Assembly (NCBI GenBank): GCA_964422635.1
Contig: CAYRBY010000003.1
Span: forward strand, 1 to 57,016
Direction: 5' to 3'
Source: an uncultured bacterium
GTDB lineage: Bacteria > Omnitrophota > Omnitrophia > Omnitrophales > Aquincolibacteriaceae
Length of the DNA: 57,016 nucleotides
Part shown: in pieces, positions 4,382 through 57,016 of the stretch
Numbering within the stretch: the stretch's first letter is position 1
How the letters are laid out: each line of letters starts with the position of its first letter
Notes under the pieces: generated by a model
Seen by the model: the letters and a program-made list of their open reading frames with translations, nothing else
Databases searched by the model: none
What the model was told of the DNA's origin: nothing
Program-made: the position numbers and the translations under genes

Positions 4382-4453
4382 AGCTGGCGGAGGGATTTGA
4401 ACCCCCGACCGGCTGTTTACAAAACAGCTGCTCTACCCCTGAGCTACGCCAGC
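4382..4453 (-). tRNA. tRNA-Thr (anticodon TGT), CCA not encoded
   Basis: Acceptor GCTGGCG/CGCCAGC, D-arm GCTC-AGGGGTA-GAGC, anticodon stem GCTGT/ACAGC with loop TTTGTAA, T-arm GGGGG-TTCAAAT-CCCTC. Confidence 0.85.
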
Positions 4454-4524
4454 GCAAATGAATAGTTCCTGATCAAAAGGAGGCGCATTTTACCCGAAAC
4501 CTTAAAAAAAATAAAGCTTTGAAA

Positions 4525-42100: not shown

Positions 42101-45100
42101 CTTCAAACCTTTCAAGCTCAGCCTGCTTTTTGCGATCGCGCTCTGCCTGCAGGTCTGACGAGTCATAAATAAAATCATACGTATCAAACTCATCGCGTAT
42201 TCCTTCCAAAAGGGACCTTTGCTCTTCAAAAACCTTGATCAGTCTTGAGCCAACAAGGGTATCTCCGCCCCGTTTTCTGCTGTCTTCCACCATTTTCTTC
42301 AGACGATCCAAGCCGGGCTCGATTTTATTTTTGATAACCTGATTGATGGCGAATTGGGCGCGCTTTCCCTGCTCAACGATTTTCAGAATATCCGGAAGCA
42401 AATCGCTAATCAGCATGACGCGTCGGCCCGTCGCAATCTTCCGCTCCAAATCAATAAGCTGCTTGACCCTGTCCTTTTCGTCTTCGCCGTAATCCTCCGG
42501 TGAAATGTGCAGGCCATAAGGGAGCCTGAGAATGATTTCAAAAACTTTCACCAGAACTTGATCTCTCTCCCGGTTAATAAAAAGTTTTTTCCGCTCCTCT
42601 TCATCAAGACCGCTTTCGACATAAACAAGCTCTTCACGGTTTTCCAAGGCTGGAAGAAGTCTTTTGTCAACAATCCCAGAAGCCATGGTTAAATCCAGAT
42701 CATCCCCGGATTCTTCTTTGGCGGCAGCCAGCATCTCATCTTTCACGGTCCGCAGCGCTATCTCCGCCTTGATCTCCTGGGTCCTGATCAAGTCCATAGC
42801 CCGGCGGATCATAAGCTCTACAACATCCAGGGCTTGCGGGAGATACCCTTTCTCCTGAAGCTCACCCATGACCTGCATCCAAAGAGTGTCGAGGGTTTCA
42901 AGCTCATTGTGTATTTTTTGGACAACAACCTTGTCATCATCATAAGGTCTCTTCAGAGAAGTATTCATTTGCCGCTGGGAAGGACGCCAAAAAACCAATT
43001 CACCAGCCTCTACTTTCAGCATTTCCGGAGAAACGCCGTTAAGGCGGACATTCTGAGGGGACTTCGTTTCCTCCGATCGCAGCTCGGAGCGAACTGTATA
43101 GGCTTTTGAACTCTTTGTGGGATTCAACGGGATTTCAGGAAGGCCTTCCGCGCGGCGCGTAAACCGCAGCCCTGCAAAAAAGCTGTGCGGAACCTGCTTA
43201 CCATTAATCGTAATACCGTAAATTTCGTAATCCGGGCTGAGAGATTCAAAAAACGACTTTATATCGACCTTCTTCTGCTGTTCATCCTTAATGGACATGA
43301 TGTCCAGGTCCGTGATCAGTTCCCCGCCGACTTTAAGATGTCTCGAAAGCATGCCCACCGTGCCCGGAATGTTGCGCATATATTCCATGACGGCCTGCGT
43401 CATCACGATCACGTCAAAAGATTCGTTTTCAAAAGCTCCCAGGTTTTGCTCTAAATCCATAAGGGCAAATCTCTGCCGAACGCTGACCATAATCGTTCCG
43501 GCTTCACCCGTGTCGATGCCAAGAATCTGTGAAAGCCCCTCGTTTGAAAACAACAGGTCCTCAAACGCGCCGGAATAAATCTCTGCCTGATCGCCATACG
43601 TTCTTATCAGTTCGGCAGGAACCACGCCGCGGCCCACGCCAAGAAGGAGCACTCGAGGTTTCTGGCCGCTGGCAATACGATCCGTAATGGCCTTGGTCAC
43701 GCGGCCTCCATGCATTTCATCCAGAAAGGCAAAGTTGCGGATGACATTCTCTTCAAGGCCATATGGATTAGGCTGTTCTTCGGCCCGCAATTCAGAACGG
43801 CGCGAGTGATAAACGTTGGAATTGGCCGTAGCATCAAGAGGTATTTCATTGATCTGCTCGAAGGAACGCGTAAAGTGCAAACCCGCAAGAAGGCTCGTGG
43901 GGGCCTGTTTGCCTTCCAGCGTAATCCCGTAAATCTCATAATTGGGTCCAAGGGATTCAAAGAAACTTTTCACATCGACGCTTTTGCCTGTCACAGAATC
44001 CTTGATTGAGAAAATGTCGAAGTCCGTCATGAATTCGCCTTTCAAGGCGAGCTTGGCGGAAAGCCGGTCCACAAGCCGTGGCTTGTTCTCTATGTACTGC
44101 ATCACAGTCTGAGTGATGATAATGACGTCAAAGGACTGAGAATCAAAAGCTCCGAGATCCTTCTCTGCGTTCGAGATGACATAGCGGTCACGTATTGTTT
44201 TTATGATGGCCTCTGTTTCCGCCGCGCTTACCTTGCCCTCCCAGAACGATGCCAACTGTTCGGGTGAAAAAAGAAGATCCTCTTTGGCGGTTGAGTAAAG
44301 CTCAATTTTATCTCCGTATTCACGCAGCATGTCCGCAGGTGCCACGCCGCGTCCGATACCAATCAAGAGCACGCGGGGTTTATCCCCAGCAGCGATCCGG
44401 CGGTTAAGGGACGCCCGGATACGGCCTCCGTGCATTTCATCAACCTGAGCAAAACCACGCGTTACGTTTTCTTCGGATTTATAAGGATTGTCTTCTTCGG
44501 ATCTCAATTCCGAGCGGTTCCGGGGGCGAAGATTGTTGAGCGTATCTATCCGGTCAGTGAGATAAGCATAATCTGTTGTAAAGGCCGCTTCCGAGGGACG
44601 AATCACCCCAGCTCCAAGCTGAAGCAAAGAAAGGTATTGGGGAATCCTGTCATGCCAGTCGTTTTGTGCATTCGCGGCACGATTCGATAATGTCTTAAGA
44701 AGACTGGGGTCACGCGCAGCCGCATCAAAAGCAGCCGCGAGGGTTCCTCTGAGAGCCGCTCCGGTAAAATCGGTAAACAGAAAGCCGTTGCCATGGTCAG
44801 GGTGATCAAAGTAATTGATCAGCGTTGCGGCAATGCCTCCCACATTTCTTGCCACCACAGGCGTTCCTGAAGCCAATGATTCCAGTTGCGTAATACCGCC
44901 CGGCTCATAACGGGAAGGCATTAGAAAGAACCGGCTTGCCAGCATGACCTGCAGGGTTGTGGCGCCAGGGATAAAGGTATACTCACCGCGGATTCTGCCG
45001 GGGTATCTCCCCTCAAGTTCACGGGTCAAATCCCTCAGACGTTCTGCCGTCCCATCCCCCTCAGCAACAGGTCCACCCAGGAATATCTGCACTTCCGGGT

Positions 45101-48100
45101 TCATTTTGAGAAGACTTTCCAACACAGTCACTCCATCTTCCGTTTCCGTCAGGAGCTGGATTCCCTTCTGCTCCGCAACGCGTCCAATCATTGAGAGAAA
45201 AATCGCATTGGGGTTCTCGGTGAAACCAAAATCTTTTTGGGTTTTAACAAGTGCCGAATTTTTATAGTCCCAAAGGTTTTTGAGGAACTCTTCGTCTGAA
45301 TAGGCATCCATCAAGGGAGGCAATTCGAGCGCCTTACGGGCCTCTTCACCTTTTTTCCAGAACGTCTTTCTCGCCGAGGCTTCATCAATGCCGTTGCTGA
45401 TTCCAAACAAAATGTCTTTCAGCGGATTCAGGATATTATCAAGACCCTCCCCCGCCTCCCGCGTCAGCATTTGCTCGGCGTAGGGGCGGCTGACAGTAAG
45501 AATCGAACGGTTTACGTGTTCCATGGCGCTTGAAGTAATGTTGAGGAACCGGTCATCGTTGGGATCGGCAACATCTTTATAAAAATCGTGGTTGAGTCCC
45601 AGAAGCGGCCAAAGATCCAACCCATACTGATTCGTAAAGATTCGGCCCTGATAATCGCGTCCGTAATTGTGAATCATGTGAACCGTCCCCACATCCTTGA
45701 GCAGCGGATCTTGCGAGTATCGGGGGTCCCGCTGAAGAAATGTCGGAATTAAACCGGTAACCCAGTCATTGGAGATGATGAGCTGCGGATCGACACCGAG
45801 CGCCCTGTTTTGAACTACTTCAAGAGCGGCACGGGATAGGAAGACAGCGCGCCGTAATTCTTCCGAAGACGGCACTTTCGCATACAGTTTGTCGGCAAGC
45901 CGGGGATGTCTCAGAAAGAGGTATCGGACCCCTTCAGCTTTGGCCTCATACACACGGCTTTGGACCGTTCTTTGAAAGGTGCGGATTTTTTCATCCGTCA
46001 AGCCGGTCATGTGTGTACCCGAATCATACATCGGGCCAAATGTCATTCCGATCTCGGCGACAGGATCAGCTTTAATGGGCACCCTTTCACCGCTCTCGGT
46101 CATGAACCCCTTTTCAATCAAAGCAGACGCGGATTCATGTTTCTTGCCCTGATTATCTTCATACAGCGGCGTAATGACCGTAACGGATACGCCGCTCTCT
46201 GACAAAGCCTTGGCAAGGCCTTCTATAACTTTGGCCAGCCCTCCGGCAATCGCATGAGGACCTTCCGGAGCTACAAAAACAATTTCTCCAATACCGAGAG
46301 TTTCCAGGGCGTGCAAAGCGGGCAGCGCTCTTTCTTTGAAGAACGGATTCCACACTTTGCTGTCTTCCTTAAGACGGGTATGAATCTTTGAGAGCGCCTC
46401 GCGGAAACGGGGAACATCCTTAACTGCCTCGTAAACAATCTTTCCCATCCCTCGCATTTCCTCTTCGGTGACAAGGCGGTGAATCGTTGAGAGAAAACTA
46501 TCGTAGGGATTCGCATCAATAAGGCTCTGGCGGATTTCCTGAATGGCTTCCTGCTTTTTAAGATTACGCCGGAGGTCTTCAAGGACTGTTTTTGGCGGGA
46601 GATCGATCCTCATGACAGCATCATCACTCCGATTTTTTCCCTGCCACACCCGTTCACCTGTTTCGCGGTTTTGGGCATAGGCCGTCACGCCAAACTCACC
46701 GATCCGTCCGGGTTGAATCACTTTGCTTGCCTTGTAAATTCCTCCTCCGAGATCCTCAATGTCCCAATTAAGGATTTCGTGGTCCGTCCAATCCAACGGA
46801 CCTTGCGTATATTCTCCCCAATGAAAAAACATCTCTGATTTTTCAAGCGTTGCGGCGTCTGTCCTGAAAGTAATTTCAACCTTGGCGGAATCTCCGGACA
46901 CAGTCACAACAGGACGGGATGTAAATTGAATCGCTTCGGAATACGGTTTCTCGGACGAGCGCAGCTCTGAGCGTATTCCCATCTCTTTGTCAAAAACTTC
47001 AATGAGAATACGCCACCGCTCAAACTCACGGACCGAACTCTGTTTCAGACTCGTCCGGACCTCCTCTGCAAATCCCAGATCCACTTGCCGGAGAAGTTTC
47101 GTCATCGCCCCCTGAACATCAACATAGCTGCCCGTTTCAAAAGTGCGGAGCGCGTCATCAATATCAGACTGTACGGCCAATGCGTATCCGGGTGTATAGC
47201 TCAAGGTTTGGGCAGCCGGATCAAAGCGAATGTCGCCCGAATCATCTAAAGAAACAGCCTCTCTGAAAGTCGACAGAATCTCAGGGTCGCCAAGAACGTT
47301 TTGAAAAGTGTCCAGCAGCTCACTGTTTTCAGTTATCTCTGCCAAACCGGCCACTTTTGCCCGTTTCTCGGCCGGCAGCTTCCAGGTAAAGTCCCCCTCC
47401 GAGATCCGGCGGACAAGGAGCTTTAAAGTCTTAACATCTTCAGAGGTTTCGATATCCAATTTTCCAATCGCATTCAGAAACGCACGATCAAGACTCTCTG
47501 TCTCTGTGCTTGTTCTGAGCTCCGAACGCTGAGCTGGTTTCACGTTTGCAGAGCCGGCAAGGGCAAGACTGCTGTAGAATGTATCCCGGCTCTTTTCAAC
47601 AGCCTGAATGACATATTCATCTTTCGGATCCAGGTAGGCGGAACCTCTCAAATAACTGACAATAGAAGCATTCGCTTTCGTAAGGCTCAAAATCTCGGCG
47701 TCCGCAGGGCCGCGCAAATCAACATATACGGGCTTCATCCATTTTTTCAGCAAATCAATGGCTGAAAATTTCAAACCAACCTTTTGTCCTGGCCTTAACA
47801 CCTCTCTGAGCCTTGAACGAAACGGGAAAGAAACTCCGTTTTCCGTTTCCGGAGATTTCCTCCATGTTTCGGCAGGCTCAAGATCGCCCGTTCTTGAATC
47901 TTTAGAATAAAGCCAGGGTTCGGTGAGATAAGAATCTTCGTCGCCATAACCAAAAGTACCGCTGGGATTGTCATAAAGGAAATCAAAAAAGCCATTTTGA
48001 ACAAGCACTAAATTCGCCAGATCATAATCATAAGCCTCAATGGAAACATTCCAGCTCTCTGCCCAGACCTGAAAAGATCCAATTCCTTCTTTTGACAGAA

Positions 48101-51100
48101 TTTCCTGATGGTGCGATTCGTAATATTTTTTTAGCCCATAATAAACAATCATTCCGAGCGTATAAGGCTCTTCACCGCTTGAAACACCGATGCTTTTTAA
48201 GGTAACGGCTTTGTCCCCTGCCCGCATTTTCTCTTCAATGAGCTGGTCCAGAAACTTTATAGTTGCAATCTGATCAAATCGGAAAAAAGCGGTTGTTGCC
48301 CTTCCAAAATCAGCAGTTTTCGAAAAAGCCCGGAGGACGTCAGCTGCGAAGGCGCTGATTTCGGCAGGTTTAGCGGACAGATTTTCTTCCAGGTAGGCTC
48401 TGAAAGAGGATTGTCCGGAAGCCTGGATACGTGCCTGGATCATACCTTCAAAGAACTGTGCATACTCATAAGGAAGTTTATCCGCGCGGATTGCCTGAAA
48501 AACACTGGCGGCCTGCGCACTTTTCTCCGGCGAAAGCTTTTCATACACGAGCTTCAGAAATTGCTGTTTTAGCGCCGTCTCATCGAAAACCCCCGTCAGC
48601 AGAGTTTGGAGCTCGGACCGGAAAGAATCGGTCTCAACACTCCGGAGTTCCGAACGTGCCGCATAGGTAAGGAGAAGAATCTCTCGGGAACTGTCATAAA
48701 GTTTCCCGGAAAAGATTGCGCCTTCGATCCCCGGAGAAAGGATGGCCTCATGAAGTTCTGCATCTGTTATCTGATCAATAGAAGATACATGCAGGACTGC
48801 GATAACCGGTTGATCTGAAGCATCACGGCCTGCGATCACGGCATGCTGCATACCCTGATGCTCAAAGAAGCCACGGTACTGAAGGTCTGAAATACTAACG
48901 CCTGCGATTTGTGCGCTGCGGTTATCTTCCGCCAGACGGATAAGGTAGGCCGCAGATCCAAACGCTAATAAATTTTCGTACATGGCCCGGCGCCACAAAA
49001 GCTTGGCATCTGAAGATTCCGTTGTTCTCAAAACAACGTCTTCTCCCAGAACCGGCACGCCTGCAAGAATATGCCCGGAGGATATAACCAGCGGCGCAGA
49101 GAGTTTCAGCTGATAAGCAATCCCATGTTCGGATTTCACCATAAGCGGTGCCTGCGGCGAAGTGCTTTCATTTGTAATTCCGTAAAGAAAACTATCTGAG
49201 ACCTCAAGATTGAAAGCTCCACGCATGCCCGAAACAACGGAATTCTTAATAACACCTGTCGAACCGGGCAAAACTTCAGAAGCTGTAATGATGGAATTCT
49301 GGACCTCAACCTGCGTCCCGGGCAATGTTCCTGTAAATAGTTCCGGCACTCCCCAGAACTGCCGCGCCAAACGACCTTCGGCTGTATCCTGAAGAAGAAC
49401 AAGGATGTTCCGTCTGAAGATTCCTTCCGTCGTACCTTCCTCAATTCCTACATTCCCGAAATCCCACCAAAGAGACTTGGCTCCAGCATTAATGACCTTC
49501 ATGAAGGGCTGAGAAGAGTTTTTCCGTGAGCTCAGATAAAGGCTGAGTACGCGCTCCGTAAACTCCGGCTGATCAAGCCTTTCTTTCGCAAGAAATTTTT
49601 TCAAAGATTCTGCATTCTTGAATTGCGAAACATCAGCGGCAGCATTCTTAAGAACAAACTCCAAGCGAGTGAGAGGGATCCACCAATCCCCGTCGGTATC
49701 AGCCCGGTTCTTTGACTGTTCCAGGGGATTTTCCTCACTCAGCTCCTGCCGGTAAGAACGCATCATGCTGTCCCAGAAACGGCGGTCCACCGTAAAAGAT
49801 CCCAGGCTTTTGCCCATTCCGGAAACCTGGCTGTGCGCAGCTATGAACTCCTGGGCTTCCTGCACTGTTTTTGGTTTCTGCATGAGCCGTGCAGCCGTCC
49901 ACACCCCCGGCCCCTGCGCTTCAAGTGCAATCAACCCGTATTTATTGATAATGTCTTCGTACGGAAACTGCCCCACCAATGCCAAAATCTCGACAGGAGA
50001 ATCGCTCGGACTTTGAAGCTCCTGGAGCGGCACCGTCGGCACAAACACCTGATCTCCCCAAAACACCATGACGCGGCCAGGACGGTTCTTGGCAAAAATA
50101 GCGCTTTGAAAAATGGTCGACTCAAGAAGCGTCATCGGCACTTGACTTCCTTCTTTGTTCAGATAGCGGGGCATTGTGATACGGCTTTTAGAACCGTATT
50201 CGGAACCCGTAATCGGCCAAACACGGCTTCCAAAACCTGCCGTATGATAAATCGCGATGGTGGCTTCCCTTCCCTTTTCACGCCTAACTTTGTCCATCAG
50301 TGATTTCCAGCTGATCCCAGCCTGTTCTTTACTTTCCTGCCGGGCGCTTTGGTAGGCCAGAAGACTGCCCAGTCCGTTTCCGGGAGGAGAACCAGCACCG
50401 TAACTTTCCAGGACTGAAAACACCGTCGTATCTTTTCCGATAACCTGTCCGCGCATGCTTTCAAGTCTCTGCTTCCAATAACGCCGTTCGCTTTCCTGCG
50501 CCGAAACGACGATCACAATGTCGGGACCTTCGGAGTTTTCAACAGCGTTGTACATGGCCTGAATGTTTTGCTGTGCAAACGCCTGCTCCTCCAAACTCAG
50601 TCCGGCAGAGTCCGTGGCTCTCAGCTCTGAACGCGGCAACGCACCAGCTTGCGTTTGCTGAGGGACTTTTGCGCTGTCAGGAAGTGACACGGCCGAAGGC
50701 TTCCATTTAAACTCTGAAGAGGCGGAATCCGGCCGCCGGCCTTCCACCGCCCGGCTAAAACCAATATCTGACGAGGACAAAACCGCGCTGATGGTAGAGT
50801 TATTCGGAAGCAAGGCTTCAAGGTTCGGTTTTGCAGAAAATGTAAGAGCCGGCGATGAGGCGGTTTCAGGAACCTCGACATCCAAGACCTGGGATAACAC
50901 GGGATGGCTTTTAAACGCTGCTCTGACACCATTCAAAGAGTCGGAAGTCAGTCCCTTTTCCTTCATCCACAAAGGCAGTGCGACCTCGACAGCTTCTTTA
51001 AAAAGAAGCGCTTCCTGTTTGGTCAGAAAAGGGTTGGCATTTTTGAAATAGATTTTAAGGTCTGCGTTTTCTCCTCCCATGACCCGGGCATATCTTTCGC

Positions 51101-52802
51101 CGCGGTCAATCTCTCCAACGCGGGGCATCACAGAGGCAAAGGACAACTTTCTTTCTCTCAGGACATCCTGAATTCCCTGAGAGTGAAACCCTCCGCTGAC
51201 AATCACAAGAACAGGCCGCGAATCCGGGGTTTCTTTTTTCGAAAACACTTCGCGGCCAGGCTTGTTCATTTCCTCCCGCACAAAGCTCAGGGCATTTGAA
51301 ACCAAAGCTTCGTCACGCTCCCGGGCCTGCTGGTAAAAGAAAAATGCACGCCGGGTCAGCTCGGTCAATTTCGCAAGATCATCTTGATCTAAAACACCTT
51401 TGAGCAGCACCTCAAGATCCGGCTTTTGAGAATCCAGGAGCTCAAACTCCTGACGCGTCATCTCAAGATACAAAAGTTTCTGGAGGCGCTCATAATTGCG
51501 CACCCTCTCGACCCATTCCTTTTCTGCCGGGCCTGCAGCCAAGCTGTTGAGAATACCGTTTTCAAGCCGGTCCATTTCATCGAACAACCCTTGGACATCC
51601 AGTTCAGACTGAAAAACAACAGCCTTCATGGCAGACTTAAAAGACTGGGCTGTCTTTTCGTCTGCGGCTTTAAAGATCCCCTTGATCTCAAGTTCTTCGA
51701 GAATCCGTCTTGGAGAAAGTTCCTGCTTTTCAGCAGCTGGGTATCTCGATAGATCTTCTGCACTTAAAAAACCCTGGCGGTTCGCCAGATCTACCAGCGC
51801 AGAAAGAATTTCTTTGTTCTGAGATGAGCTCGAAAGAATATTCAGGATCTGCTTCCAGCTTTGAACAACTGCTTCGCTGCGAAGATTCGCTTTTACTTTC
51901 TTGAGTTGAAGCAATCTTGCAAAGTTGGGGAATCGCAGCTGCTCTATAGTGTCATCCAGATCGACATGCAAAGTCTGAAGGCTTTGGGCCTTGAGAGCAT
52001 CTGCGTAAACGCTCAAATCGCCGCTGCCTGCGTCTTTCCGGCGTATTCCAAATTGCCCATGCCTGCGCTTTTCCCGCTCCTTATAGAATCGCACCAGTTC
52101 AGGATTCAGTGTCTGCGTCATCGCGCTTTGCAGAGCCTCTTTGCCCTTTTCAAGGACCTCGGATACCCAGGGACGGACATTAAGCAAAGTCCGGTATGAT
52201 TCTAAATTCTCGCGGTAAAGCGGTGTTGTCTCCACCCCTTGAATTTTTACAGCTCGTAAGGTTCCAGTCTCCCGTGTCTCTGTTTGCTTCTGATACTGAG
52301 ACCACGCAAAAAGTTCAACCCCGGAGACTTCCCCCTTTTCGAACAAATCCTGGACAACTGCTTCGCCGGCGGCGGAAAGCTCCGGGAAAAAGTCAAAATA
52401 CTCAGGATGCAAATTGCCGCGGGCACCTTCTACAGCGATATAAAGATCAGAGTTGCGGGCTGCTTGGTTTTCAGCGAGAAACGTAAGGATTTCCTGAATG
52501 TGTTTTTGAGCATCGGGGTTAGCGTGAGCATCTTGGAGATGAATGACCCTGGGAGTTTCCGCACTTCCAGCTCCCTCTTCAATACTCTGAACAGCGCCCG
52601 CTGTTTCAGGCAGATTCTTGAGAAGTGCTGACAAAGCCCCTTTTTCTTCATAGGCAGGGCTGCGCGAAACCGCTGCGGGCATATCACCGGCATACGCTTG
52701 ACGGACAGTCCCCGGCCCCGTTGTCTCAGAACAGAGAAAGACAATGAGCAAAGGCCAAGCAATGAGCCGGGCCCACCCGGTTTTGATTTTGAACAAATTC
52801 AT
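39135..52802 (-). CDS. giant modular protein (4,555 aa) with eight RSELR-marked module junctions
   Basis: Single uninterrupted frame. The ATG at 52802 is preceded by GGAG. See the sub-features for modules. Confidence 0.9.
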   Translation of the reverse strand: MNLFKIKTGWARLIAWPLLIVFLCSETTGPGTVRQAYAGDMPAAVSRSPAYEEKGALSALLKNLPETAGAVQSIEEGAGSAETPRVIHLQDAHANPDAQKHIQEILTFLAENQAARNSDLYIAVEGARGNLHPEYFDFFPELSAAGEAVVQDLFEKGEVSGVELFAWSQYQKQTETRETGTLRAVKIQGVETTPLYRENLESYRTLLNVRPWVSEVLEKGKEALQSAMTQTLNPELVRFYKEREKRRHGQFGIRRKDAGSGDLSVYADALKAQSLQTLHVDLDDTIEQLRFPNFARLLQLKKVKANLRSEAVVQSWKQILNILSSSSQNKEILSALVDLANRQGFLSAEDLSRYPAAEKQELSPRRILEELEIKGIFKAADEKTAQSFKSAMKAVVFQSELDVQGLFDEMDRLENGILNSLAAGPAEKEWVERVRNYERLQKLLYLEMTRQEFELLDSQKPDLEVLLKGVLDQDDLAKLTELTRRAFFFYQQARERDEALVSNALSFVREEMNKPGREVFSKKETPDSRPVLVIVSGGFHSQGIQDVLRERKLSFASVMPRVGEIDRGERYARVMGGENADLKIYFKNANPFLTKQEALLFKEAVEVALPLWMKEKGLTSDSLNGVRAAFKSHPVLSQVLDVEVPETASSPALTFSAKPNLEALLPNNSTISAVLSSSDIGFSRAVEGRRPDSASSEFKWKPSAVSLPDSAKVPQQTQAGALPRSELRATDSAGLSLEEQAFAQQNIQAMYNAVENSEGPDIVIVVSAQESERRYWKQRLESMRGQVIGKDTTVFSVLESYGAGSPPGNGLGSLLAYQSARQESKEQAGISWKSLMDKVRREKGREATIAIYHTAGFGSRVWPITGSEYGSKSRITMPRYLNKEGSQVPMTLLESTIFQSAIFAKNRPGRVMVFWGDQVFVPTVPLQELQSPSDSPVEILALVGQFPYEDIINKYGLIALEAQGPGVWTAARLMQKPKTVQEAQEFIAAHSQVSGMGKSLGSFTVDRRFWDSMMRSYRQELSEENPLEQSKNRADTDGDWWIPLTRLEFVLKNAAADVSQFKNAESLKKFLAKERLDQPEFTERVLSLYLSSRKNSSQPFMKVINAGAKSLWWDFGNVGIEEGTTEGIFRRNILVLLQDTAEGRLARQFWGVPELFTGTLPGTQVEVQNSIITASEVLPGSTGVIKNSVVSGMRGAFNLEVSDSFLYGITNESTSPQAPLMVKSEHGIAYQLKLSAPLVISSGHILAGVPVLGEDVVLRTTESSDAKLLWRRAMYENLLAFGSAAYLIRLAEDNRSAQIAGVSISDLQYRGFFEHQGMQHAVIAGRDASDQPVIAVLHVSSIDQITDAELHEAILSPGIEGAIFSGKLYDSSREILLLTYAARSELRSVETDSFRSELQTLLTGVFDETALKQQFLKLVYEKLSPEKSAQAASVFQAIRADKLPYEYAQFFEGMIQARIQASGQSSFRAYLEENLSAKPAEISAFAADVLRAFSKTADFGRATTAFFRFDQIATIKFLDQLIEEKMRAGDKAVTLKSIGVSSGEEPYTLGMIVYYGLKKYYESHHQEILSKEGIGSFQVWAESWNVSIEAYDYDLANLVLVQNGFFDFLYDNPSGTFGYGDEDSYLTEPWLYSKDSRTGDLEPAETWRKSPETENGVSFPFRSRLREVLRPGQKVGLKFSAIDLLKKWMKPVYVDLRGPADAEILSLTKANASIVSYLRGSAYLDPKDEYVIQAVEKSRDTFYSSLALAGSANVKPAQRSELRTSTETESLDRAFLNAIGKLDIETSEDVKTLKLLVRRISEGDFTWKLPAEKRAKVAGLAEITENSELLDTFQNVLGDPEILSTFREAVSLDDSGDIRFDPAAQTLSYTPGYALAVQSDIDDALRTFETGSYVDVQGAMTKLLRQVDLGFAEEVRTSLKQSSVREFERWRILIEVFDKEMGIRSELRSSEKPYSEAIQFTSRPVVTVSGDSAKVEITFRTDAATLEKSEMFFHWGEYTQGPLDWTDHEILNWDIEDLGGGIYKASKVIQPGRIGEFGVTAYAQNRETGERVWQGKNRSDDAVMRIDLPPKTVLEDLRRNLKKQEAIQEIRQSLIDANPYDSFLSTIHRLVTEEEMRGMGKIVYEAVKDVPRFREALSKIHTRLKEDSKVWNPFFKERALPALHALETLGIGEIVFVAPEGPHAIAGGLAKVIEGLAKALSESGVSVTVITPLYEDNQGKKHESASALIEKGFMTESGERVPIKADPVAEIGMTFGPMYDSGTHMTGLTDEKIRTFQRTVQSRVYEAKAEGVRYLFLRHPRLADKLYAKVPSSEELRRAVFLSRAALEVVQNRALGVDPQLIISNDWVTGLIPTFLQRDPRYSQDPLLKDVGTVHMIHNYGRDYQGRIFTNQYGLDLWPLLGLNHDFYKDVADPNDDRFLNITSSAMEHVNRSILTVSRPYAEQMLTREAGEGLDNILNPLKDILFGISNGIDEASARKTFWKKGEEARKALELPPLMDAYSDEEFLKNLWDYKNSALVKTQKDFGFTENPNAIFLSMIGRVAEQKGIQLLTETEDGVTVLESLLKMNPEVQIFLGGPVAEGDGTAERLRDLTRELEGRYPGRIRGEYTFIPGATTLQVMLASRFFLMPSRYEPGGITQLESLASGTPVVARNVGGIAATLINYFDHPDHGNGFLFTDFTGAALRGTLAAAFDAAARDPSLLKTLSNRAANAQNDWHDRIPQYLSLLQLGAGVIRPSEAAFTTDYAYLTDRIDTLNNLRPRNRSELRSEEDNPYKSEENVTRGFAQVDEMHGGRIRASLNRRIAAGDKPRVLLIGIGRGVAPADMLREYGDKIELYSTAKEDLLFSPEQLASFWEGKVSAAETEAIIKTIRDRYVISNAEKDLGAFDSQSFDVIIITQTVMQYIENKPRLVDRLSAKLALKGEFMTDFDIFSIKDSVTGKSVDVKSFFESLGPNYEIYGITLEGKQAPTSLLAGLHFTRSFEQINEIPLDATANSNVYHSRRSELRAEEQPNPYGLEENVIRNFAFLDEMHGGRVTKAITDRIASGQKPRVLLLGVGRGVVPAELIRTYGDQAEIYSGAFEDLLFSNEGLSQILGIDTGEAGTIMVSVRQRFALMDLEQNLGAFENESFDVIVMTQAVMEYMRNIPGTVGMLSRHLKVGGELITDLDIMSIKDEQQKKVDIKSFFESLSPDYEIYGITINGKQVPHSFFAGLRFTRRAEGLPEIPLNPTKSSKAYTVRSELRSEETKSPQNVRLNGVSPEMLKVEAGELVFWRPSQRQMNTSLKRPYDDDKVVVQKIHNELETLDTLWMQVMGELQEKGYLPQALDVVELMIRRAMDLIRTQEIKAEIALRTVKDEMLAAAKEESGDDLDLTMASGIVDKRLLPALENREELVYVESGLDEEERKKLFINRERDQVLVKVFEIILRLPYGLHISPEDYGEDEKDRVKQLIDLERKIATGRRVMLISDLLPDILKIVEQGKRAQFAINQVIKNKIEPGLDRLKKMVEDSRKRGGDTLVGSRLIKVFEEQRSLLEGIRDEFDTYDFIYDSSDLQAERDRKKQAELERFEAVYKDTLNFFPAPSERLRTFIAEFRTQVMYEIRERGRTLDYGTAKFFSQKGSEQYRDLPDEQLDFLMRFYNVSQYGIVKRGGDKNLIVFAEKIRHEADFSELMMRNKGRGKVVSIATLKRFAPDDAAGRVPHWFIFSKDQGIVPIEALDFEDRKMDFRELKEGDFVLVDGKKGIAVVNPSAEAQRDMIERGKVYKYLDAYFLPRVSLPALVNGRPFYFWADESRLDYLKRDGDQPRFQKFGARGIGLLRLEQLMGEMDRAGIEFDEMRLSLAIEEMLLPFSDPEAPLTVRLYDVQGDKRPKFFVQGKTEEQIESILKTHSNIRFYLDERGEFRNQREFGKMQIKAIYRAYLRARKDNLQILLPNLLKVEEVGALKKLFEEARKELIRELEEEALVQTEAAVVRRHGWVTDIDALEAEGLEKGLDWFRKQLLSKAEMKPHEELFGKESDADFSKVAGSDFGDKITQRLSKIRFGYMFEEVSAVEQRMDIMKAVLEQHQDSEAKPFFGIGTNDLQKSVLESRDEGSDEMNKLHPGLVKAIADLEGSARELGLHLTVEGQWGGSARMLFAAMALEIYHGRKMQLVAPTNKIPELLEMIRMTDSQDLEHVFDLGTSYKPASMKMLIDRMEAGDLPELDEMNLVATMLQDRIEAKIVASADFQRFRTLKERQELVGRSELRLAATPDISSTQEWKRTLSETVSPRFALRSPGLFGPDVQASVVNVSRDLGGVYASKQIADRLPAQVAVDDDREGAAELPREQAAQRWVERQVMDDAGLFERAGVSDPALQKMMSEISGLPVRSPEDQGAAGLSAVVHVQMPKVPENLAGFLPVLAVVASVNGALHLNMASLNEEGAGKFEKQILSLAAGKGIQLKRGQLQVRGGMGASVFATVPHSKLAAAEHHALLGEEDVFSSFPKRRGLNLFSLDPAAMSDPGLFASTVITVLQAMALGKQPEDYFHVLNPRSLFPQNFQAVVQAVSTYLAAQARIAAAA
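39138..40073 (-). other. C-terminal tail domain shared by the three large proteins (aa 4244-4555)
   Basis: Starts RSELR-LAATPD. Ends ...VLQAMALGKQPEDYFHVLNPRSLFPQNFQAVVQAVSTYLAAQARIAAAA, which aligns by eye with the tails at 10798-11859 and 52961-53857. Confidence 0.6.
40074..40088 (-). other. RSELR junction motif (4,555-aa protein, copy 8, aa 4239-4243)
   Basis: Coding strand cgt tcg gag ctt cgc. Context ELVG-RSELR-LAATPD. Confidence 0.95.
40089..43076 (-). other. PEP-utilizing-enzyme-like module (aa 3243-4238; Enzyme I / PPDK / PEP synthase family)
   Basis: Swivel-domain-like GDFVLVDGKKGIAVVNPS. TIM-barrel motifs FGARGIGLLRLEQLM and FFGIGTNDLQKSV. I could not find the canonical phospho-His motif (G-G-x-T-S-H) or the catalytic Cys context. 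Confidence 0.55.
43077..43091 (-). other. RSELR junction motif (4,555-aa protein, copy 7, aa 3238-3242)
   Basis: Coding strand cgc tcc gag ctg cga. Context AYTV-RSELR-SEETKSPQ. Confidence 0.95.
43092..43784 (-). other. class-I methyltransferase-like module, second copy (aa 3007-3237)
   Basis: PRVLLLGVGRGVVPAEL (a GxGxG-type motif I) and FDVIVMTQAVMEYM. This is a paralogue of the preceding module. Confidence 0.45.
43785..43799 (-). other. RSELR junction motif (4,555-aa protein, copy 6, aa 3002-3006)
   Basis: Coding strand cgt tct gaa ttg cgg. Context YHSR-RSELR-AEEQPNPY. Confidence 0.95.
43800..44501 (-). other. class-I methyltransferase-like module, first copy (aa 2768-3001)
   Basis: PRVLLIGIGRGVAPADM and FDVIIITQTVMQYI. 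It begins SEEDNPY...EENV.R.FA..DEMHGGR, as its paralogue does. Confidence 0.45.
44502..44516 (-). other. RSELR junction motif (4,555-aa protein, copy 5, aa 2763-2767)
   Basis: Coding strand cgc tcg gaa ttg aga. Context RPRN-RSELR-SEEDNPY. Confidence 0.95.
44517..46958 (-). other. glycogen/starch-synthase-like GT5 module with an N-terminal beta-sandwich-like region (aa 1949-2762)
   Basis: IVFVAPEGPHAIAGGLAKVIEGLAKALSESGVSVTVITPLYE (the GlgA KxGGL-type motif region), SMIGRVAEQKGIQLL, and PSRYEPGGITQLESLASGTPVVARNVGGI. The N-terminal ~120 aa (EITFRTD...MFFHWGEY...IYKASKV) resemble a carbohydrate-binding-type sandwich, with low confidence. Confidence 0.7.
46959..46973 (-). other. RSELR junction motif (4,555-aa protein, copy 4, aa 1944-1948)
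   Basis: Coding strand cgc tca gag ctg cgc. Context EMGI-RSELR-SSEKPY. Confidence 0.95.
46974..47513 (-). other. small module of unknown function (aa 1764-1943)
   Basis: Bounded by RSELR copies 3 and 4. I recognise no motif. Confidence 0.4.
47514..47528 (-). other. RSELR junction motif (4,555-aa protein, copy 3, aa 1759-1763)
   Basis: Coding strand cgt tcg gag ctc aga. Context KPAQ-RSELR-TSTETE. Confidence 0.95.
47529..48641 (-). other. CheR-like SAM-dependent methyltransferase module (aa 1388-1758)
   Basis: LKSIGVSSGEEPYTLGMIVY matches the CheR-type xGCSxGEEPYSxAM motif. It is followed by SIEAYDYDLANLVLVQNGFF, compare atDid...l..A..G.Y. Confidence 0.55.
48642..48656 (-). other. RSELR junction motif (4,555-aa protein, copy 2, aa 1383-1387)
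   Basis: Coding strand cgt tcg gaa ctc cgg. Context TYAA-RSELR-SVETDS. A degenerate echo, RSELQ, lies 8 aa downstream. Confidence 0.95.
48657..50618 (-). other. NDP-sugar pyrophosphorylase-like module (fucokinase / GDP-fucose pyrophosphorylase N-domain-like) plus beta-helix-like region (aa 729-1382)
   Basis: DIVIVVSAQESERRYWKQRL...GNGLGSLLAY and IYHTAGFGSRVWPITGSEYGSKSRITMP resemble the motifs I recall for that family (IVLTA..Y..QL ... GSGGATL ... HsGG.SkRlP). WWDFGNVG is followed by short repeats such as VQNSIITASEVLPGSTGVIKNSVVSG. Confidence 0.4.
50619..50633 (-). other. RSELR junction motif (4,555-aa protein, copy 1, aa 724-728)
   Basis: Coding strand cgt tca gag ctg aga. Context GALP-RSELR-ATDSAG. 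Confidence 0.95.
50634..52802 (-). other. signal/anchor plus N-terminal domain shared with the 3,019-aa protein (aa 1-723)
   Basis: Hydrophobic N-terminus WARLIAWPLLIVFLCSE with an AYA-G site. IHLQDAHANPDAQKHIQEILTFLAEN (QDAH at nt 52524-52535), VEGARG, and VIVSGGFHSQGIQDVLRERKLSFASVMPRV (GGFH at nt 51183-51194). Confidence 0.7.
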
Positions 52803-52855
52803 ATCGCTCCGCGATGGTTTTACGCGTGTTGGGGCCTTTTTAAAAGTCTTACAGA

Positions 52856-52957: not shown

Positions 52958-55900
52958 TTAAGCTTGGGTCGCCAGATGGTTGATCACCTGAATCATCCGG
53001 GAAACATTCTCAACAAGTTCATCCAGATTAATATCGAATTTTTTAAGAAGATCGTCCATTCGAACAACATCATATTGATCACTCAGCTGCCGCAAAAGCG
53101 CTGAGGCCACAAGAATAGCCGTATTTCGATCCAGGCGCTCGTTAAAAATTCTCTGCATACGCGGAATATAGCCGAGCTTGTCCAGCCAATCCATGCGTTC
53201 GCCTACAACAGCCGAATCCAGCTCCTTGTTTTCAGAGTAGAGCTGCTTCACGGCCCGGACGTAACTGGCAGGGCTTCCATCTGTAGATACGAACTTGAAT
53301 TGTTCGATCACCCTGGAAGCAGAAATCTTGAGCTCGTCCTGACGGGCAGCGACGCGTGAGGCCTGAGACCTGGCCTGCTGAGGCGAACCATTCACAAGAA
53401 AAGCAAAAAGGTTTCCTCTGTCTGCTGCCGCCAAAACAACAGCTACGCGGAAAAGTTCATCACTGGATTGATCCTGCTCTAAAGGCAGGACAATCTGGCC
53501 CGGAGTTTTTGCGTGATCCAGGAGCCAGCTATATTTTCCCAAAGCAGCGCGGGCCTCTTTGAGAACGACGGGTTCCTCTTCAGCAGTCTCTGGCGGAGAG
53601 GAAAGCCTCAGGCGAACGTATTCCAAAGAAGCAGGATCTTCCGAACGGATCAGTTCATCGGAGACAAACGCTGCAGCAACCGCTCCAGCCACCTGATCTT
53701 TAGGGATAAAATCAGGGTGATGTTCCAAGAATTGCCCCACATCAACCGACTCAGGAGCCGGAAGAGATAAGACTTTTGCGTGGAAATCTGCAGTCGTTGC
53801 CGGATTGACTCCATCGGCCTGAACAAGACTTTCAAAGACAGAACTTGTTTCTGCGAGCCGAAGCTCCGAACGGATCGAACCCAAAGGAGGTGTCCGGCGT
53901 CCGGGGCCGATAAGATTAATATTTAAATCTGCTGTCAGCTTGGGCGCCCGGGAATAGAGCGTGTTCCGGGTATCAATCAAGAGCTGCCCTGAAAATTTTG
54001 CATAATCCAGCTTTTTGTATTCATCCCAATCCGTAATCAGAAGGGCGGCATCTGCAGGCTTGCTGCCGGCAGGAGTTTCATAAGACAGAGCCTCTTCAGC
54101 TTGATTGACAAACACAACTCTGTTTGTCGCTTCATATCTTTCCTTGAAAAATATTTCACGGAAGTAAAACTCTTTGATAACCGAAAGATCCAGACGCTTA
54201 TCTCTGAGCAGATTTTGAAAAGATTGAATCAGGGGGCGGGTCAAAAACTGCGCACTCTGGTCATCCTCCCACGGATCCTTCGGGCTGCGCGCATCAAAAT
54301 AGTTTCCGTAGCTTTTCCGAAAAGCCTCTTCACTAAGAGTCAGTTTATGGTCCGCAACCATTCTTTCCCTTAATTGCCTTTGAAAAACCGGATTAAAACG
54401 AAGGCGGGCAAATAGCTGCCGCTGCGCCGATTGGTCCTCTAAAGCACCCGATTTCAGATAGCCATCAAAGGCCTTTTCAAAATCGCCGTCATACTTGAAG
54501 TGCTTATAAAGTTCGCCAAGATAATTTGAGATAATCGCCTCTTTGCGCGGCGCGTCGGGTGTTCTGAAAATAGGGTCATCAATTCTGACCTGCTGGACTT
54601 CAAGTTTTAGAAGTTCATAAAGTACATGCGCACTCGGCGCTTCTCTCATATCGTCTGTTTCAGCTTTAAAGGCCATTCCAAGAAGCGCGATCACCTTGCC
54701 CTGGAGAATCGCTTTGGTTCCAATCGCCTTGGCGCCGCGGAGCTGCTCAATAAGCCTCTTAACATCCGCTGTTTTAAAATATTGATTCAATTGGTCCGCA
54801 AGAACAATCATGAGAAGCGAACGGCCTGCTTGTTCGTCTGAAAGATAATTCACGGCGCGGACGTCCTTAGGGAAACAGGAACCGCCGTAACCGCAGCCCT
54901 CATTCAGGAAGGCGTTGCCGCCGACCCGTTGATCTTTCCGCAGGCGGGGAGCAATCTCACGGAAGTTCGAGCCCTCGATTTCAAGAGCAGCATCCTGCGC
55001 CATCACATTTGCAGTTGTAATGGAAACAGCCAGAAAAGCGTTCGCAGCGTACTTGATCAATGTGGATGTGGCAGTATCAGTCAACAGAACCGTGTGCGGG
55101 GTGCGCAGCATGAGCGGGTACCAAAGCTCCAACAGGTCTTTCTCGACCCGTTTCCGGGCCTCCGGAGGCATAGACGAATAAAAGCCCAAAACGGTCCGGT
55201 CAAGATCGGTCGTAATATCTTTAATGGCCTGACCTTCTCTTAAAAATTCAGGGTTACTGACGAACCCGTAGTCAATCCCGGGCTTAAGCCCAAACTCTTG
55301 CTCCAGGATTTTAACAGCATCTTCAAAAACCCTCGGCGTAACCGTCGATTTAATTACGATTGTCTTGAAGGCCGCTTCCCTTCCGGACTCAGCGGCCTGC
55401 CGCTTGATAATCGCCGCGATATCACGCATGGCTCCGTTAATATAAGAGGGGTCTTGGGCACCGTTGTCTTGCTGGGGTGTCCCGACGGCCAGATAAACGA
55501 TGCTCGCTTCGCGAACACCTTTTTCGTATTCTTCAGGCGATGCCTGAAACCGAATCCTTCCTGACTCCTTACCTTTGATAATCAGATCGCGCAATCCGGG
55601 CTCATGAATAGGGACTTCCGTCGCTTGCGAGTTAAGCGCATCCATGGCCCGCTTTCTCTGCGGAATGTCCAAAACAGTGACATCATTTCCAAGATCCGCA
55701 AGATTCGCGCCCGTAGTCAGACCCACATAGCCTCCGCCGATCACAGCAACCCTTTTCTGAGTGACTGGAACAGCCTTCGCCTCACGCTGATCCAGTTCAG
55801 GCGTTCCAAAGATGTCTTCCAGTTTCTTCTTGCGCGCGTCATCGGTTTCCAAAGATAAAAGATATGCCTCATATTCTCCAATGGCTTTTGCCGCAAGCTG

Positions 55901-57016
55901 CGGACTCCCTCGCTCATAATCATCCGCAATCACATGACTGTCGGCTAACGTATAATCGGCCTGCCCGTCCAGAACGGGCCGGCCGACACTGACGTAATGG
56001 ATACCGGCGGTTTTCAAACTTTCAAGCGTGTAAAGAGTTTCACCGTTGGCACGAAGCCCAAAAAGGTTAATCCCATCAAACAGATACTTTGCTCCGAGAC
56101 TCTGTTTAAGCTTGGGCAAATCGAGTTTCTTTAAATCCGTATTGGCGTCGGTAGGAATGACTACAAAATCCGCACTGGCTGAGGCCGTGTAAATATCAAG
56201 ATCGGGTGTCCCCTCGTCGACTCCATAAAAACGAACTCGACGGTCTTTGAGAATTTTGGCCATAGAATCATGCTCATTAGCCTTAATTCTATCGAGCCAC
56301 TCTTTTAACGATTGGCGGGCAAGCGGATCAGCGACATAAAACTCTGTAACACCTGAGGAAACCAGCTGGCGGATAATACGCTTGGCCGGCGATTTGGTCA
56401 CCCGGGTGTCCCCTTCGCGATACCCCACACCAATGAGCGCTGCCTTGCGCCCTTTCAGGTCTCCGACATAGGCGGATATTTTGTCTGAAAAATCCTGCAG
56501 ATTGCGCTTATTGATATCGGTAATTGTTTCCAACTCAAAAAGAAAGTGAAGAATAGGCGGGAGTTTATCAAGAATGTCTTTAACGGTTAGATCGCTTTCG
56601 GGATCCTCGGCGATTTCCCGGAGCATGGCAACGCTGTCAGAAAGCCGCCGCTCAATAATTTCAAGTTTCTTTTGCTTCGTGTCCTGCTTTTCGCGTTCCG
56701 TGAAAAAGTCAGGCCGGGCTTCAAGAGAAGCAAGAACCTCTTCCAGGCGCTCCTCCCTGACCCATTCCAAAAATTGAGCGAGACGTCCGCCAAACCCCAA
56801 AGAAGGATTCGTGAAAAGTTTCCGGATGCGTTTGTCTAGCCCCGCGCCGTAAGCCACAGCACTGAGATCTGCGCCATAGCGCTCAGATACTTTGGCCAAA
56901 TCATTAAAGTGCGCGAGTTTTGCAGCCAGATAGAGAAACAAATCATTCTTGGTCTGCTCCGCGCTCGGAGCACTCATAAAGTCAGGGTTGTCAAAATTAG
57001 CCCTGAGCATTTGGAG
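52958..57016 (-). CDS. large modular protein (at least 1,350 aa, 5-prime end outside the window): tandem UDP-glucose-dehydrogenase-like modules, RSELR, shared tail
   Basis: The frame is open to the window edge (codons LQ precede the first Met at 57010). The first residues already lie in the middle of a UDPGDH-type central domain, so the true start must be upstream of the window. Confidence 0.85.
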   Translation of the reverse strand, partial: LQMLRANFDNPDFMSAPSAEQTKNDLFLYLAAKLAHFNDLAKVSERYGADLSAVAYGAGLDKRIRKLFTNPSLGFGGRLAQFLEWVREERLEEVLASLEARPDFFTEREKQDTKQKKLEIIERRLSDSVAMLREIAEDPESDLTVKDILDKLPPILHFLFELETITDINKRNLQDFSDKISAYVGDLKGRKAALIGVGYREGDTRVTKSPAKRIIRQLVSSGVTEFYVADPLARQSLKEWLDRIKANEHDSMAKILKDRRVRFYGVDEGTPDLDIYTASASADFVVIPTDANTDLKKLDLPKLKQSLGAKYLFDGINLFGLRANGETLYTLESLKTAGIHYVSVGRPVLDGQADYTLADSHVIADDYERGSPQLAAKAIGEYEAYLLSLETDDARKKKLEDIFGTPELDQREAKAVPVTQKRVAVIGGGYVGLTTGANLADLGNDVTVLDIPQRKRAMDALNSQATEVPIHEPGLRDLIIKGKESGRIRFQASPEEYEKGVREASIVYLAVGTPQQDNGAQDPSYINGAMRDIAAIIKRQAAESGREAAFKTIVIKSTVTPRVFEDAVKILEQEFGLKPGIDYGFVSNPEFLREGQAIKDITTDLDRTVLGFYSSMPPEARKRVEKDLLELWYPLMLRTPHTVLLTDTATSTLIKYAANAFLAVSITTANVMAQDAALEIEGSNFREIAPRLRKDQRVGGNAFLNEGCGYGGSCFPKDVRAVNYLSDEQAGRSLLMIVLADQLNQYFKTADVKRLIEQLRGAKAIGTKAILQGKVIALLGMAFKAETDDMREAPSAHVLYELLKLEVQQVRIDDPIFRTPDAPRKEAIISNYLGELYKHFKYDGDFEKAFDGYLKSGALEDQSAQRQLFARLRFNPVFQRQLRERMVADHKLTLSEEAFRKSYGNYFDARSPKDPWEDDQSAQFLTRPLIQSFQNLLRDKRLDLSVIKEFYFREIFFKERYEATNRVVFVNQAEEALSYETPAGSKPADAALLITDWDEYKKLDYAKFSGQLLIDTRNTLYSRAPKLTADLNINLIGPGRRTPPLGSIRSELRLAETSSVFESLVQADGVNPATTADFHAKVLSLPAPESVDVGQFLEHHPDFIPKDQVAGAVAAAFVSDELIRSEDPASLEYVRLRLSSPPETAEEEPVVLKEARAALGKYSWLLDHAKTPGQIVLPLEQDQSSDELFRVAVVLAAADRGNLFAFLVNGSPQQARSQASRVAARQDELKISASRVIEQFKFVSTDGSPASYVRAVKQLYSENKELDSAVVGERMDWLDKLGYIPRMQRIFNERLDRNTAILVASALLRQLSDQYDVVRMDDLLKKFDINLDELVENVSRMIQVINHLATQA
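52961..53857 (-). other. C-terminal tail domain shared by the three large proteins (aa 1052-1350)
   Basis: Starts RSELR-LAETSS, compare RSELR-LAATPD in the 4,555-aa protein. Ends ...ILVASALLRQLSDQYDVVRMDDLLKKFDINLDELVENVSRMIQVINHLATQA. Confidence 0.5.
53858..53872 (-). other. RSELR junction motif (1,350-aa protein, aa 1047-1051)
   Basis: Coding strand cgt tcg gag ctt cgg. Context LGSI-RSELR-LAETSS. Confidence 0.95.
53873..55756 (-). other. complete UDP-glucose/GDP-mannose dehydrogenase-like module with a large insertion (aa 419-1046)
   Basis: Rossmann motif VAVIGGGYVGLTTGANLADLGNDVTVLDI. Catalytic Cys motif GYGGSCFPKDV. C-terminal domain VIALLGMAFKAETDDMREAPS. An insertion of roughly 170 aa lies between DDPIF and VVFVNQAEEAL. 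Confidence 0.75.
55976..57016 (-). other. partial, apparently degenerate UDPGDH-like module (aa 1 to ~345; boundaries approximate)
   Basis: Central-domain-like LYLAAKLAHFNDLAKVSERYGADLSAVAYGAGLDKRI. The catalytic position reads GFGGRLAQF where GGSCFPKD is expected. The C-terminal domain is AALIGVGYREGDTRVTKSPAKRI...YVADP. Confidence 0.5.

Follow-up and report, generated by a model that had tools for sequence, protein, structure and literature searches.

Why should giant proteins assembled from enzymes that depend on cytoplasmic cofactors begin in the manner of exported proteins? The question is raised by a 57,016-nt stretch of contig CAYRBY010000003.1 (assembly GCA_964422635.1, hereafter the window) from an uncultured bacterium of the phylum Omnitrophota, the minus strand of which holds three very large genes, G1, G2 and G3. 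Their modules are separated by the pentapeptide RSELR (15 copies on the window's coding strand and 1 elsewhere; R-[SA]-E-x-R in generalised form), and the cargo between the joints of G1 consists of glycosyltransferase family 5 (GT5), methyltransferase and phosphoenolpyruvate (PEP)-utilizer-like modules. An earlier note on this DNA had observed a short basic region followed by a hydrophobic stretch at the start of both complete giants and offered three readings, namely an uncleaved membrane anchor holding a cytoplasmic enzyme array, action of the modules in another cell's cytoplasm, or action in an unusual compartment. From their anatomy, the N-termini of G1 and G2 are probably ordinary signal peptides of the Sec type, cleavable by signal peptidase I, and the evidence presented below makes Sec export of the whole chain highly likely.

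N-terminal signals of the giant proteins

Window positions 52683-52802 on the minus strand, to which the observation was assigned, do encode residues 1-40 of G1, MNLFKIKTGWARLIAWPLLIVFLCSETTGPGTVRQAYAGD, and the sequence is the one originally given. The ATG of G1 at 52800-52802 is the first start codon past an in-frame stop, with no other start codon between, and a Shine-Dalgarno-like element lies just upstream (Table 1). For G2, whose N-terminus reads MFAHPRKGKFSVRAFITWLILCVFTVSCGKD..., the open reading frame (ORF) program had listed 10795-19854 with a TTG start; the TTG at 19854 is probably not the true start, and an ATG ten codons past it, at 19822-19824, has a Shine-Dalgarno-like element of its own. 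The n-region of G1 is 12 aa long (charge +3) and is followed by a 12-aa h-region with a mean Kyte-Doolittle hydropathy of 2.75 and a 14-aa c-region ending in AYA; the corresponding regions of G2 comprise 13 aa (+4), 13 aa (2.51) and 13 aa ending in AFA. Both proteins thus match the Sec/signal peptidase I criteria of a positive n-region, a 12-13-aa core and small residues at −3/−1, so that the basic and hydrophobic segments of the earlier note belong to a complete n-h-c arrangement with ATG, ribosome-binding site and AxA site. The net charge of the first 15 mature residues, −2 in G1 and 0 in G2, also fits Sec export. An 8-bp GC-rich hairpin, GAGCCGGGCCCACCCGGTTT, at 52764-52783 within codons 7-13 of G1, which was predicted as a terminator for the opposite strand, is probably there by chance.

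The distribution of charge around the core bears on orientation. Across the family the mean charge was +2.9 on the N-terminal side of the core and −0.4 after it, and G1 and G2 carried +3 and +4, respectively, compared to 0 to −2 on the other side. By the positive-inside rule, positive charge on the N-flank places the N-terminus in and the bulk of the chain out, an orientation opposite to the one that a cytoplasmic array needs. A signal anchor with N-out/C-in topology was defined by a span of ~18 or more residues and a net positive C-terminal flank; neither G1 nor G2 has these features, their cores being 12-13 aa long and their positive charge lying on the N-flank. Internal segments of transmembrane (TM) grade were found in neither G1 nor G2, and the many single TM segments that a Kyte-Doolittle caller returned for individual RSExR-delimited modules are probably false. 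Outside the window on the same contig (C3:87337-95443), a family member of ~2,680 aa contains a module with strongly hydrophobic segments (19-residue Kyte-Doolittle mean up to 2.28), suggesting integral-membrane cargo in some members of the family.

Two other kinds of signal were considered. The lipobox-like VSC noticed earlier is present in G2 as TVSC followed by G, where Thr at −3 fails the classic pattern [LVI][ASTVI][GAS]C and only a looser PROSITE-style pattern fits; VFLC of G1, with Leu at −1, does not match the classic pattern either. A G2 ortholog of 65% identity (P0003) reads LFMTTNGFSD (MTTNG) in place of TVSC and has lost the Cys, with the AFA-QIP junction kept, and no convincing lipobox was found among 121 relatives. 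The TVSC of G2 is probably fortuitous, and a lipoprotein (signal peptidase II) signal was rejected on these grounds. A Tat signal, defined as S/T-R-R-x-F-L-K ahead of a weakly hydrophobic core, was rejected as well: G1 and G2 each have just one Arg ahead of the core, and no strict twin-arginine motif occurs in these two or in the 121 relatives, although TatC is encoded in the genome.

The signal layout recurs throughout the family. The head domain that follows it (QDAH ... EG ... FYxxAxxRD ... GGFH) was found in ~30 ORFs of the 2.68-Mb genome, always N-terminal, and all of the paralogues with a complete 5′ end (~22 of ~22) show, ahead of the head, a start codon followed by a basic stretch, a hydrophobic core of 10-15 residues and an AxA-type site; the signal sequences themselves diverge widely despite this common layout. 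Of 121 family proteins in other genomes, 98 passed a strict signal rule, compared to 22% of a background made up of the other long ORFs of the window's genome (binomial P = 4e-43). This rule replaced a looser first one, which 37% of the background ORFs had passed, and the family proteins failing even the looser rule were visibly truncated gene calls. When DNA was read without a gene caller, the layout preceded the head at 10/10 loci of other genomes. Ala occupied the −1 position in 109 of 120 cases, as picked by a rule that favours Ala at the site. Within the window's genome, BamA, an Omp85 paralogue and two secretins begin in a comparable way, and ClpB, an aldehyde dehydrogenase and Sua5 do not. 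Judged by these sequence rules, a predicted signal peptide is a rule of the family and not a chance feature. In this genome the family comprises 72 ORFs or fragments with a head or RSELR, which occupy 319 kb or 11.9% of the assembly, and RSELR occurs 165 times in ORFs of at least 300 aa. The head was present in 151 of the 201 sampled genomes of the phylum, mostly in multiple copies, and the names of the relatives assign the family to Omnitrophota.

Two groups of relatives depart from this general picture. One subfamily (P0007-P0037) shares a strongly conserved signal sequence, roughly [KR]-[ILF]-T-A-[LVF]-x-T-x-x-x-F-x-x-T-N-T-x-W-A-Q, a degree of conservation exceeding what a generic Sec signal requires; one protein of this type is labelled a Tat-signal protein by NCBI, yet has no RR. 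In a distant branch with the same head (P0079-P0121), the hydrophobic segment is directly followed by the basic motif A-E-x-N-F-W-x-[DE]-R-R, many TM segments are predicted and RSExR joints are absent; this branch may have a topology unlike that of the window proteins.

Cysteine exclusion and the enzyme modules

The composition of the mature chains provides a second line of evidence for export. The only Cys of G1, C24, lies in the signal peptide, leaving none in the 4,517 mature residues (39-4555); two of the three Cys of G2 are likewise in its signal peptide, and both Cys among the 1,352 residues of G3 fall in NEGCGYGGSCFPKD, the active site of UDP-glucose dehydrogenase (UDPGDH). Over 105,409 residues of the family in this genome Cys amounted to 0.07%, compared to 1.08% in other long ORFs and 0.7-1.8% in the free-standing GlgA, UGDH and Enzyme I (EI)-like paralogues. 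In relatives from other genomes, Cys made up 2.09% of the signal peptides but 0.091% of the mature parts (Fisher P = 5e-55), and 36 of 98 mature chains had no Cys at all. Size alone is not the cause of this depletion, because large non-family proteins of the genome reach 0.4-1.5%. The other signal-peptide-positive proteins of the genome showed a two-fold depletion (0.55% vs 1.10%). Autotransporter passengers are likewise known for their paucity of Cys, which is tied to their need to remain unfolded and competent for translocation in an oxidising periplasm. Exported proteins are known to exclude cysteine as an adaptation (PMC2823432). The genome encodes a VKOR homologue and a DsbA-like thioredoxin, indicating that the periplasm probably forms disulfides. 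Depletion was equal over head, cargo and tail, which argues that the whole chain, and not the head alone, leaves the cytoplasm.

Pfam searches identified GT5 starch synthase (2.5e-35), Glycos_transf_1 (GT1) and PEP-utilizers_C (1e-16) domains in the window proteins, with matches to several S-adenosylmethionine (SAM) methyltransferase models, and all three UDPGDH domains in G3 (1e-39 to 7e-24). The GT5, UDPGDH, SAM methyltransferase and PEP-utilizer labels of the earlier note were thereby confirmed, but its kinases were not: no kinase model matched G1, G2 or G3 at E ≤ 0.01, and Pkinase, ABC1 and APH were found only in relatives. The UDPGDH module retains GxGYVG, NPEFLREG and the catalytic GGSCFPKD, and since this catalytic site is the only place where G3 has kept Cys, catalysis dependent on nicotinamide adenine dinucleotide (NAD) is evidently under selection. 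The G2 methyltransferase, which scores above the Pfam cut-offs, retains motif I and NPPW, and the GT5 module retains the R/K of the QKG motif and E-x7-E. As far as motifs can tell, some modules at least are still catalytic, and the paradox already recognised, that of enzymes needing cofactors not normally available outside the cytoplasm, is borne out by the UDPGDH and methyltransferase modules. Separate, normal-sized genes exist for GlgA, UGDH (two) and an EI-like protein (one), so the giant modules represent extra divergent copies and not the housekeeping set. In relatives, cargo of extracytoplasmic type (M23, VanY, beta-lactamase) occurs along with cargo of intracellular type, the latter including sigma-70 region 4, receiver, HPr, RNase III, FHA, Fic, Ser/Thr kinase and PP2C domains as well as hexokinase, PGM, PGI and FBPase.

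The head is invariant at H46, E74-G75, R396 and GGFH421-424 among 21 paralogues. An AlphaFold (AF2) model (predicted local distance difference test score, pLDDT, 83.5) combines a small alpha/beta core and a long helical insert. Foldseek found no significant match to this model in the PDB, the only leads other than coiled coils being weak (EreA-like 3b55/2rad with probability up to 0.16, and HopBA1); a head profile searched against PDB sequences returned coiled-coil noise only, and Pfam contained no match. The modelled head is compatible with a tentative placement in the Tiki/TraB/ChaN/erythromycin-esterase superfamily, for which an alpha/beta core with paired GxxH-type motifs and conserved Glu and Arg served as criteria. 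The tails of G1 and G2 end in Ala-rich strings and have no phmmer-detectable paralogue in the genome, nor any detectable kinship with each other.

Machinery for export is encoded in the genome, including LepB (Peptidase_S26 on C36, E = 4e-55), LspA, Lgt, TatC, BamA, 3-4 secretins and GspF/PilC-type platform proteins; the bacterium is therefore a diderm equipped with the usual export apparatus. The ATP/ADP translocase family PF03219 had no match in the genome, but none in the control genomes either.

Table 1. Coordinates of the family genes and of the N-terminal features of G1 and G2 in the window
Feature	Position	Strand	Description
G1	39135-52802	-	4,555 aa; signal peptide, head, 8 RSELR joints, tail, in this order
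Shine-Dalgarno-like GGAG	52807-52810	-	4 nt upstream of the G1 ATG, read directly
G1 signal peptide, aa 1-38	52689-52802	-	n MNLFKIKTGWAR, h LIAWPLLIVFLC, c SETTGPGTVRQAYA; predicted signal peptidase I cut between AYA and GD
G1 mature N-terminus	50634-52688	-	variable linker, then conserved head (QDAH ... EG ... FYxxAxxRD ... GGFH)
First RSELR of G1	50619-50633	-	closes the head region
G2	10795-19824	-	3,009 aa counted from the ATG; signal peptide, head, 6 RSELR joints, tail
Shine-Dalgarno-like AAGGA	19830-19834	-	5 nt upstream of the G2 ATG
G2 signal peptide, aa 1-39	19708-19824	-	n MFAHPRKGKFSVR, h AFITWLILCVFTV, c SCGKDFSIPRAFA; predicted signal peptidase I cut between AFA and QI
TVSC, lipobox-like (aa 25-28 of G2)	19741-19752	-	Thr at −3
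G3, third family gene, 3′ part	52958-57016	-	UDPGDH cargo, 1 RSELR, tail; 1,352 aa in the window

The third giant gene is interrupted by a change of frame. The ORF that carries its head (C3:56999-59732, 911 codons) begins with the signal peptide MSQAYFMVIISARKCAAITLFFFGVQTAASA, and the G3 ORF opens at C3:57121 in another frame, overlapping it by ~120 nt; a sequencing error, a true frameshift or a pseudogene could be the reason. Elsewhere in the window, two neighbouring plus-strand ORFs at 31063-34160 (477 and 555 aa) with hydrophobic N-termini and without a Pfam match lie between an ABC-transporter pair and a hexapeptide transferase/GT2/DegT aminotransferase cluster, which suggests a surface-glycan locus. 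At the left end of the window (5-3960, minus strand), genes for a trehalose-phosphatase, a GT20 trehalose-6-phosphate synthase and an alpha-amylase-family (TreS-like) enzyme are grouped.

Where the cargo would act

The signal anatomy, its conservation in the family, the charge orientation, the lack of other TM segments, the exclusion of Cys and the presence of the machinery can all be read from the sequence, and the mechanism proposed here is built on them. Translation would begin at the upstream ATG, and the basic n-region with its 12-13-residue core would engage the Sec translocon, probably co-translationally, so that the entire chain of head, RSELR-separated cargo and tail would pass out of the cytoplasm. 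LepB would cut the signal after AYA or AFA, and the nearly Cys-free chain would escape disulfide locking in an oxidising periplasm of the VKOR/DsbA-like type. After crossing the outer membrane and being delivered to a host or prey cell, the cargo would work beyond the producer's cytoplasm, most likely inside that cell or at its breached surface, with NAD, SAM and nucleotide sugars supplied by the host or prey and with the modules freed by cutting at the R-S-E-x-R joints. Published work portrays Omnitrophota as ultra-small predators or parasites that depend on a host (PMC10066038; bioRxiv 10.64898/2026.06.07.730766), and together with cargo aimed at intracellular targets this makes action in another cell the best-fitting of the three readings in the earlier note, which are not equally likely; the unusual compartment is possible. 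Action in or at a foreign cell, taken by itself, is nevertheless a tentative proposal to which we give somewhat less than an even chance, and we place the full series of steps, from Sec export and cleavage through release at the joints to work of the cargo beyond the producer and most likely in a host, just short of even. The most specific version, with intact enzymes delivered into hosts, cut at R-S-E-x-R and rewiring sugar-nucleotide, methylation and signalling chemistry by means of host cofactors, appears rather unlikely.

Several observations weigh against this proposal. With 13-14 aa the c-regions of G1 and G2 are unusually long, and because charged residues occur in them as well, the exact cut site is uncertain; the signal-peptide and topology calls come from our own rules and not from SignalP or DeepTMHMM. 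When the 221 ORFs located up to 5 kb from the 72 family ORFs were compared all against all, no cluster of three or more formed and no conserved neighbouring (secretion) gene emerged, and no route by which a chain of 330-500 kDa would cross the outer membrane or enter a foreign cell is evident. Enzymes of sugar metabolism would be unusual effectors. Some modules look catalytically altered in sequence: GT5 reads IAGGL in place of KTGGL and NDW in place of HDW, and the PEP-utilizer module has no Cys and hence lacks the catalytic Cys of Enzyme I and PPDK. Finally, the loss of Cys might have another cause.

The alternative that fares best keeps export and drops entry. The proteins would form a periplasmic or surface enzyme coat retained by the producer, using material that leaks from an attached or lysed host, an arrangement we consider improbable though worth weighing. 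It draws on the same evidence as Sec export itself, surface-coat proposals for Omnitrophota giants have been published to judge by the citation in PMC10066038, and extracellular pre-processing of sugars was suggested by West-Roberts 2023 (10.1101/2023.11.21.568195). The peptidoglycan-active cargo of relatives and the lack of a delivery machine adjoining the family genes also agree with a coat. However, NAD, SAM, UDP-glucose and ATP are dilute and short-lived outside cells, cargo such as sigma-70 region 4, receiver, HPr, RNase III, FHA and kinase/phosphatase domains has no obvious extracellular target, and G1 and G2 would be left with no membrane anchor once the signal is removed.

The cofactor problem would also vanish if the modules were mostly former enzymes that serve in binding, as scaffolds or as decoys. 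The altered GT5, without the KTGGL lysine and the HDW histidine, and the Cys-free PEP-utilizer module point in that direction, but the retained UDPGDH motifs, with the catalytic Cys being one of two Cys in 1,352 residues, the SAM motifs and NPPW of a G2 methyltransferase scoring above the Pfam cut-offs, and the preserved R/K and E-x7-E of GT5 point the other way and render this explanation quite improbable.

Still less probable is export of the head alone, in which the chain would be cut in the cytoplasm at the first joint during synthesis and the cargo retained. Such a scheme would reconcile a true signal peptide with cytoplasmic enzymes, and it accords with a head that is always N-terminal and followed by a joint. 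Yet cargo and tail are as free of Cys as the head, with 0 Cys in G1 residues 39-4555, no stop-transfer segment lies past the head, and the tail would be left without a role.

An uncleaved N-terminal anchor that holds the enzyme array at the membrane in the producer's own cytoplasm would solve the cofactor problem directly, and 46% of long Omnitrophota proteins have been classed as TM-anchored and cytoplasm-facing (bioRxiv 10.64898/2026.06.07.730766). The long, charged c-regions of G1 and G2 lower the certainty of cleavage, and the distant branch with the basic FWxxRR motif past its hydrophobic segment has many TM helices. We regard this reading of the earlier note as disfavoured and its probability as very low: the positive charge of the N-flank indicates an N-in, bulk-out topology, cores of 12-13 residues fall below membrane-spanning length, the AxA-type site is conserved, and a 15-fold depletion of Cys confined to the mature chain has no rationale in the cytoplasm, where paralogues contain 0.7-1.8%.

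A true start downstream of the hydrophobic stretch, which would abolish any signal function and which the earlier note had allowed for, is hardly credible: G1 does have an ATG, that of Met41 (window 52680-52700), directly past the predicted AYA-GD cut with an SD-like GGTGAT before it, but no such internal start exists in G2 or most paralogues, the hydrophobic N-terminus shares its frame with a start codon throughout the family and at 10/10 loci of other genomes, and the signal-bearing ATGs of G1 and G2 are backed by ribosome-binding sites. Translation from Met41 as an additional internal start, producing a signal-less cytoplasmic isoform of G1, is possible.

Relation to known systems

The closest published counterparts are the Omnitrophota giants ('Archaeovorins', 10.1101/2023.11.21.568195; long-protein catalogue, 10.64898/2026.06.07.730766), which come from the same phylum and raise the same question of localisation. 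They share signal peptides and starch-synthase, GT1, methyltransferase, PGM and PPDK-type domains with the window proteins and are suspected of being cut into pieces. Signal peptides or TM helices were reported on 94% of long Omnitrophota proteins, with metabolic domains on the periplasmic side discussed (bioRxiv 10.64898/2026.06.07.730766), and the remark in the earlier note that each of its options would be unusual for proteins of this size consequently fails within this phylum. Domains of glycolysis and sugar metabolism predicted to lie outside the cytoplasm have been treated as a puzzle (West-Roberts 2023, 10.1101/2023.11.21.568195; bioRxiv 10.64898/2026.06.07.730766). The window proteins are smaller (3-4.5 vs 10-147 thousand aa) and, unlike the published giants, have a signal peptide only and no TM helices. 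Their grammar of head, R-S-E-x-R joint and tail also sets them apart, neither preprint mentioning RSELR or polyprotein (0 occurrences); a full-text literature search for RSELR retrieved only papers on the 'varSelRF' software, and one for Omnitrophota with polyprotein retrieved no paper.

Among secreted multi-effector proteins, MARTX toxins of Vibrio resemble the proposed system in being large secreted polypeptides with an array of unrelated enzymatic effectors that use host cofactors and are released by proteolysis. In contrast to the N-terminal Sec signal of the window proteins, MARTX toxins have type I secretion with a C-terminal signal and no N-terminal Sec signal, and they possess glycine-rich repeats and an inositol-phosphate-activated cysteine protease domain. 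No MARTX-type Pfam family (cysteine protease, glycine-rich repeats, type I signal) was matched in G1, G2 or G3 at E ≤ 0.01, and the likeness is functional only. Type Va autotransporters share the N-terminal Sec signal peptide and a very long passenger, but no Pfam match to their C-terminal beta-barrel was found in the window giants, and the tails of G1 and G2 end Ala-rich where autotransporters end in an aromatic terminal residue. Sec-exported AB-type toxins, the A subunits of which use host NAD, illustrate that a Sec signal on a cofactor-dependent enzyme is no contradiction if the enzyme acts in another cell's cytoplasm. These toxins are small and single-enzyme, with dedicated B subunits and known outer-membrane routes, whereas the window chains string together as many as eight modules or more and have no known route.

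There is nothing out of the ordinary in the signal peptide as such, and the localisation puzzle had been raised in both Omnitrophota preprints. What the window adds is a clean form of this question in small, signal-peptide-only members with a defined predicted cut site and no confounding TM helices, evidence disfavouring an anchor, and, in the exclusion of Cys with the catalytic Cys kept, compositional support for the export of enzymes that would still be functional. If the cargo does work in host cells, ~12% of this genome would constitute an effector arsenal of an undescribed kind, and delivery into hosts would represent a novel type of multi-effector delivery by bacteria, in which no dedicated injection system adjoins the genes. 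If the cargo instead works in the producer's envelope, the periplasm would need to contain nucleotide cofactors, which would be equally unexpected.

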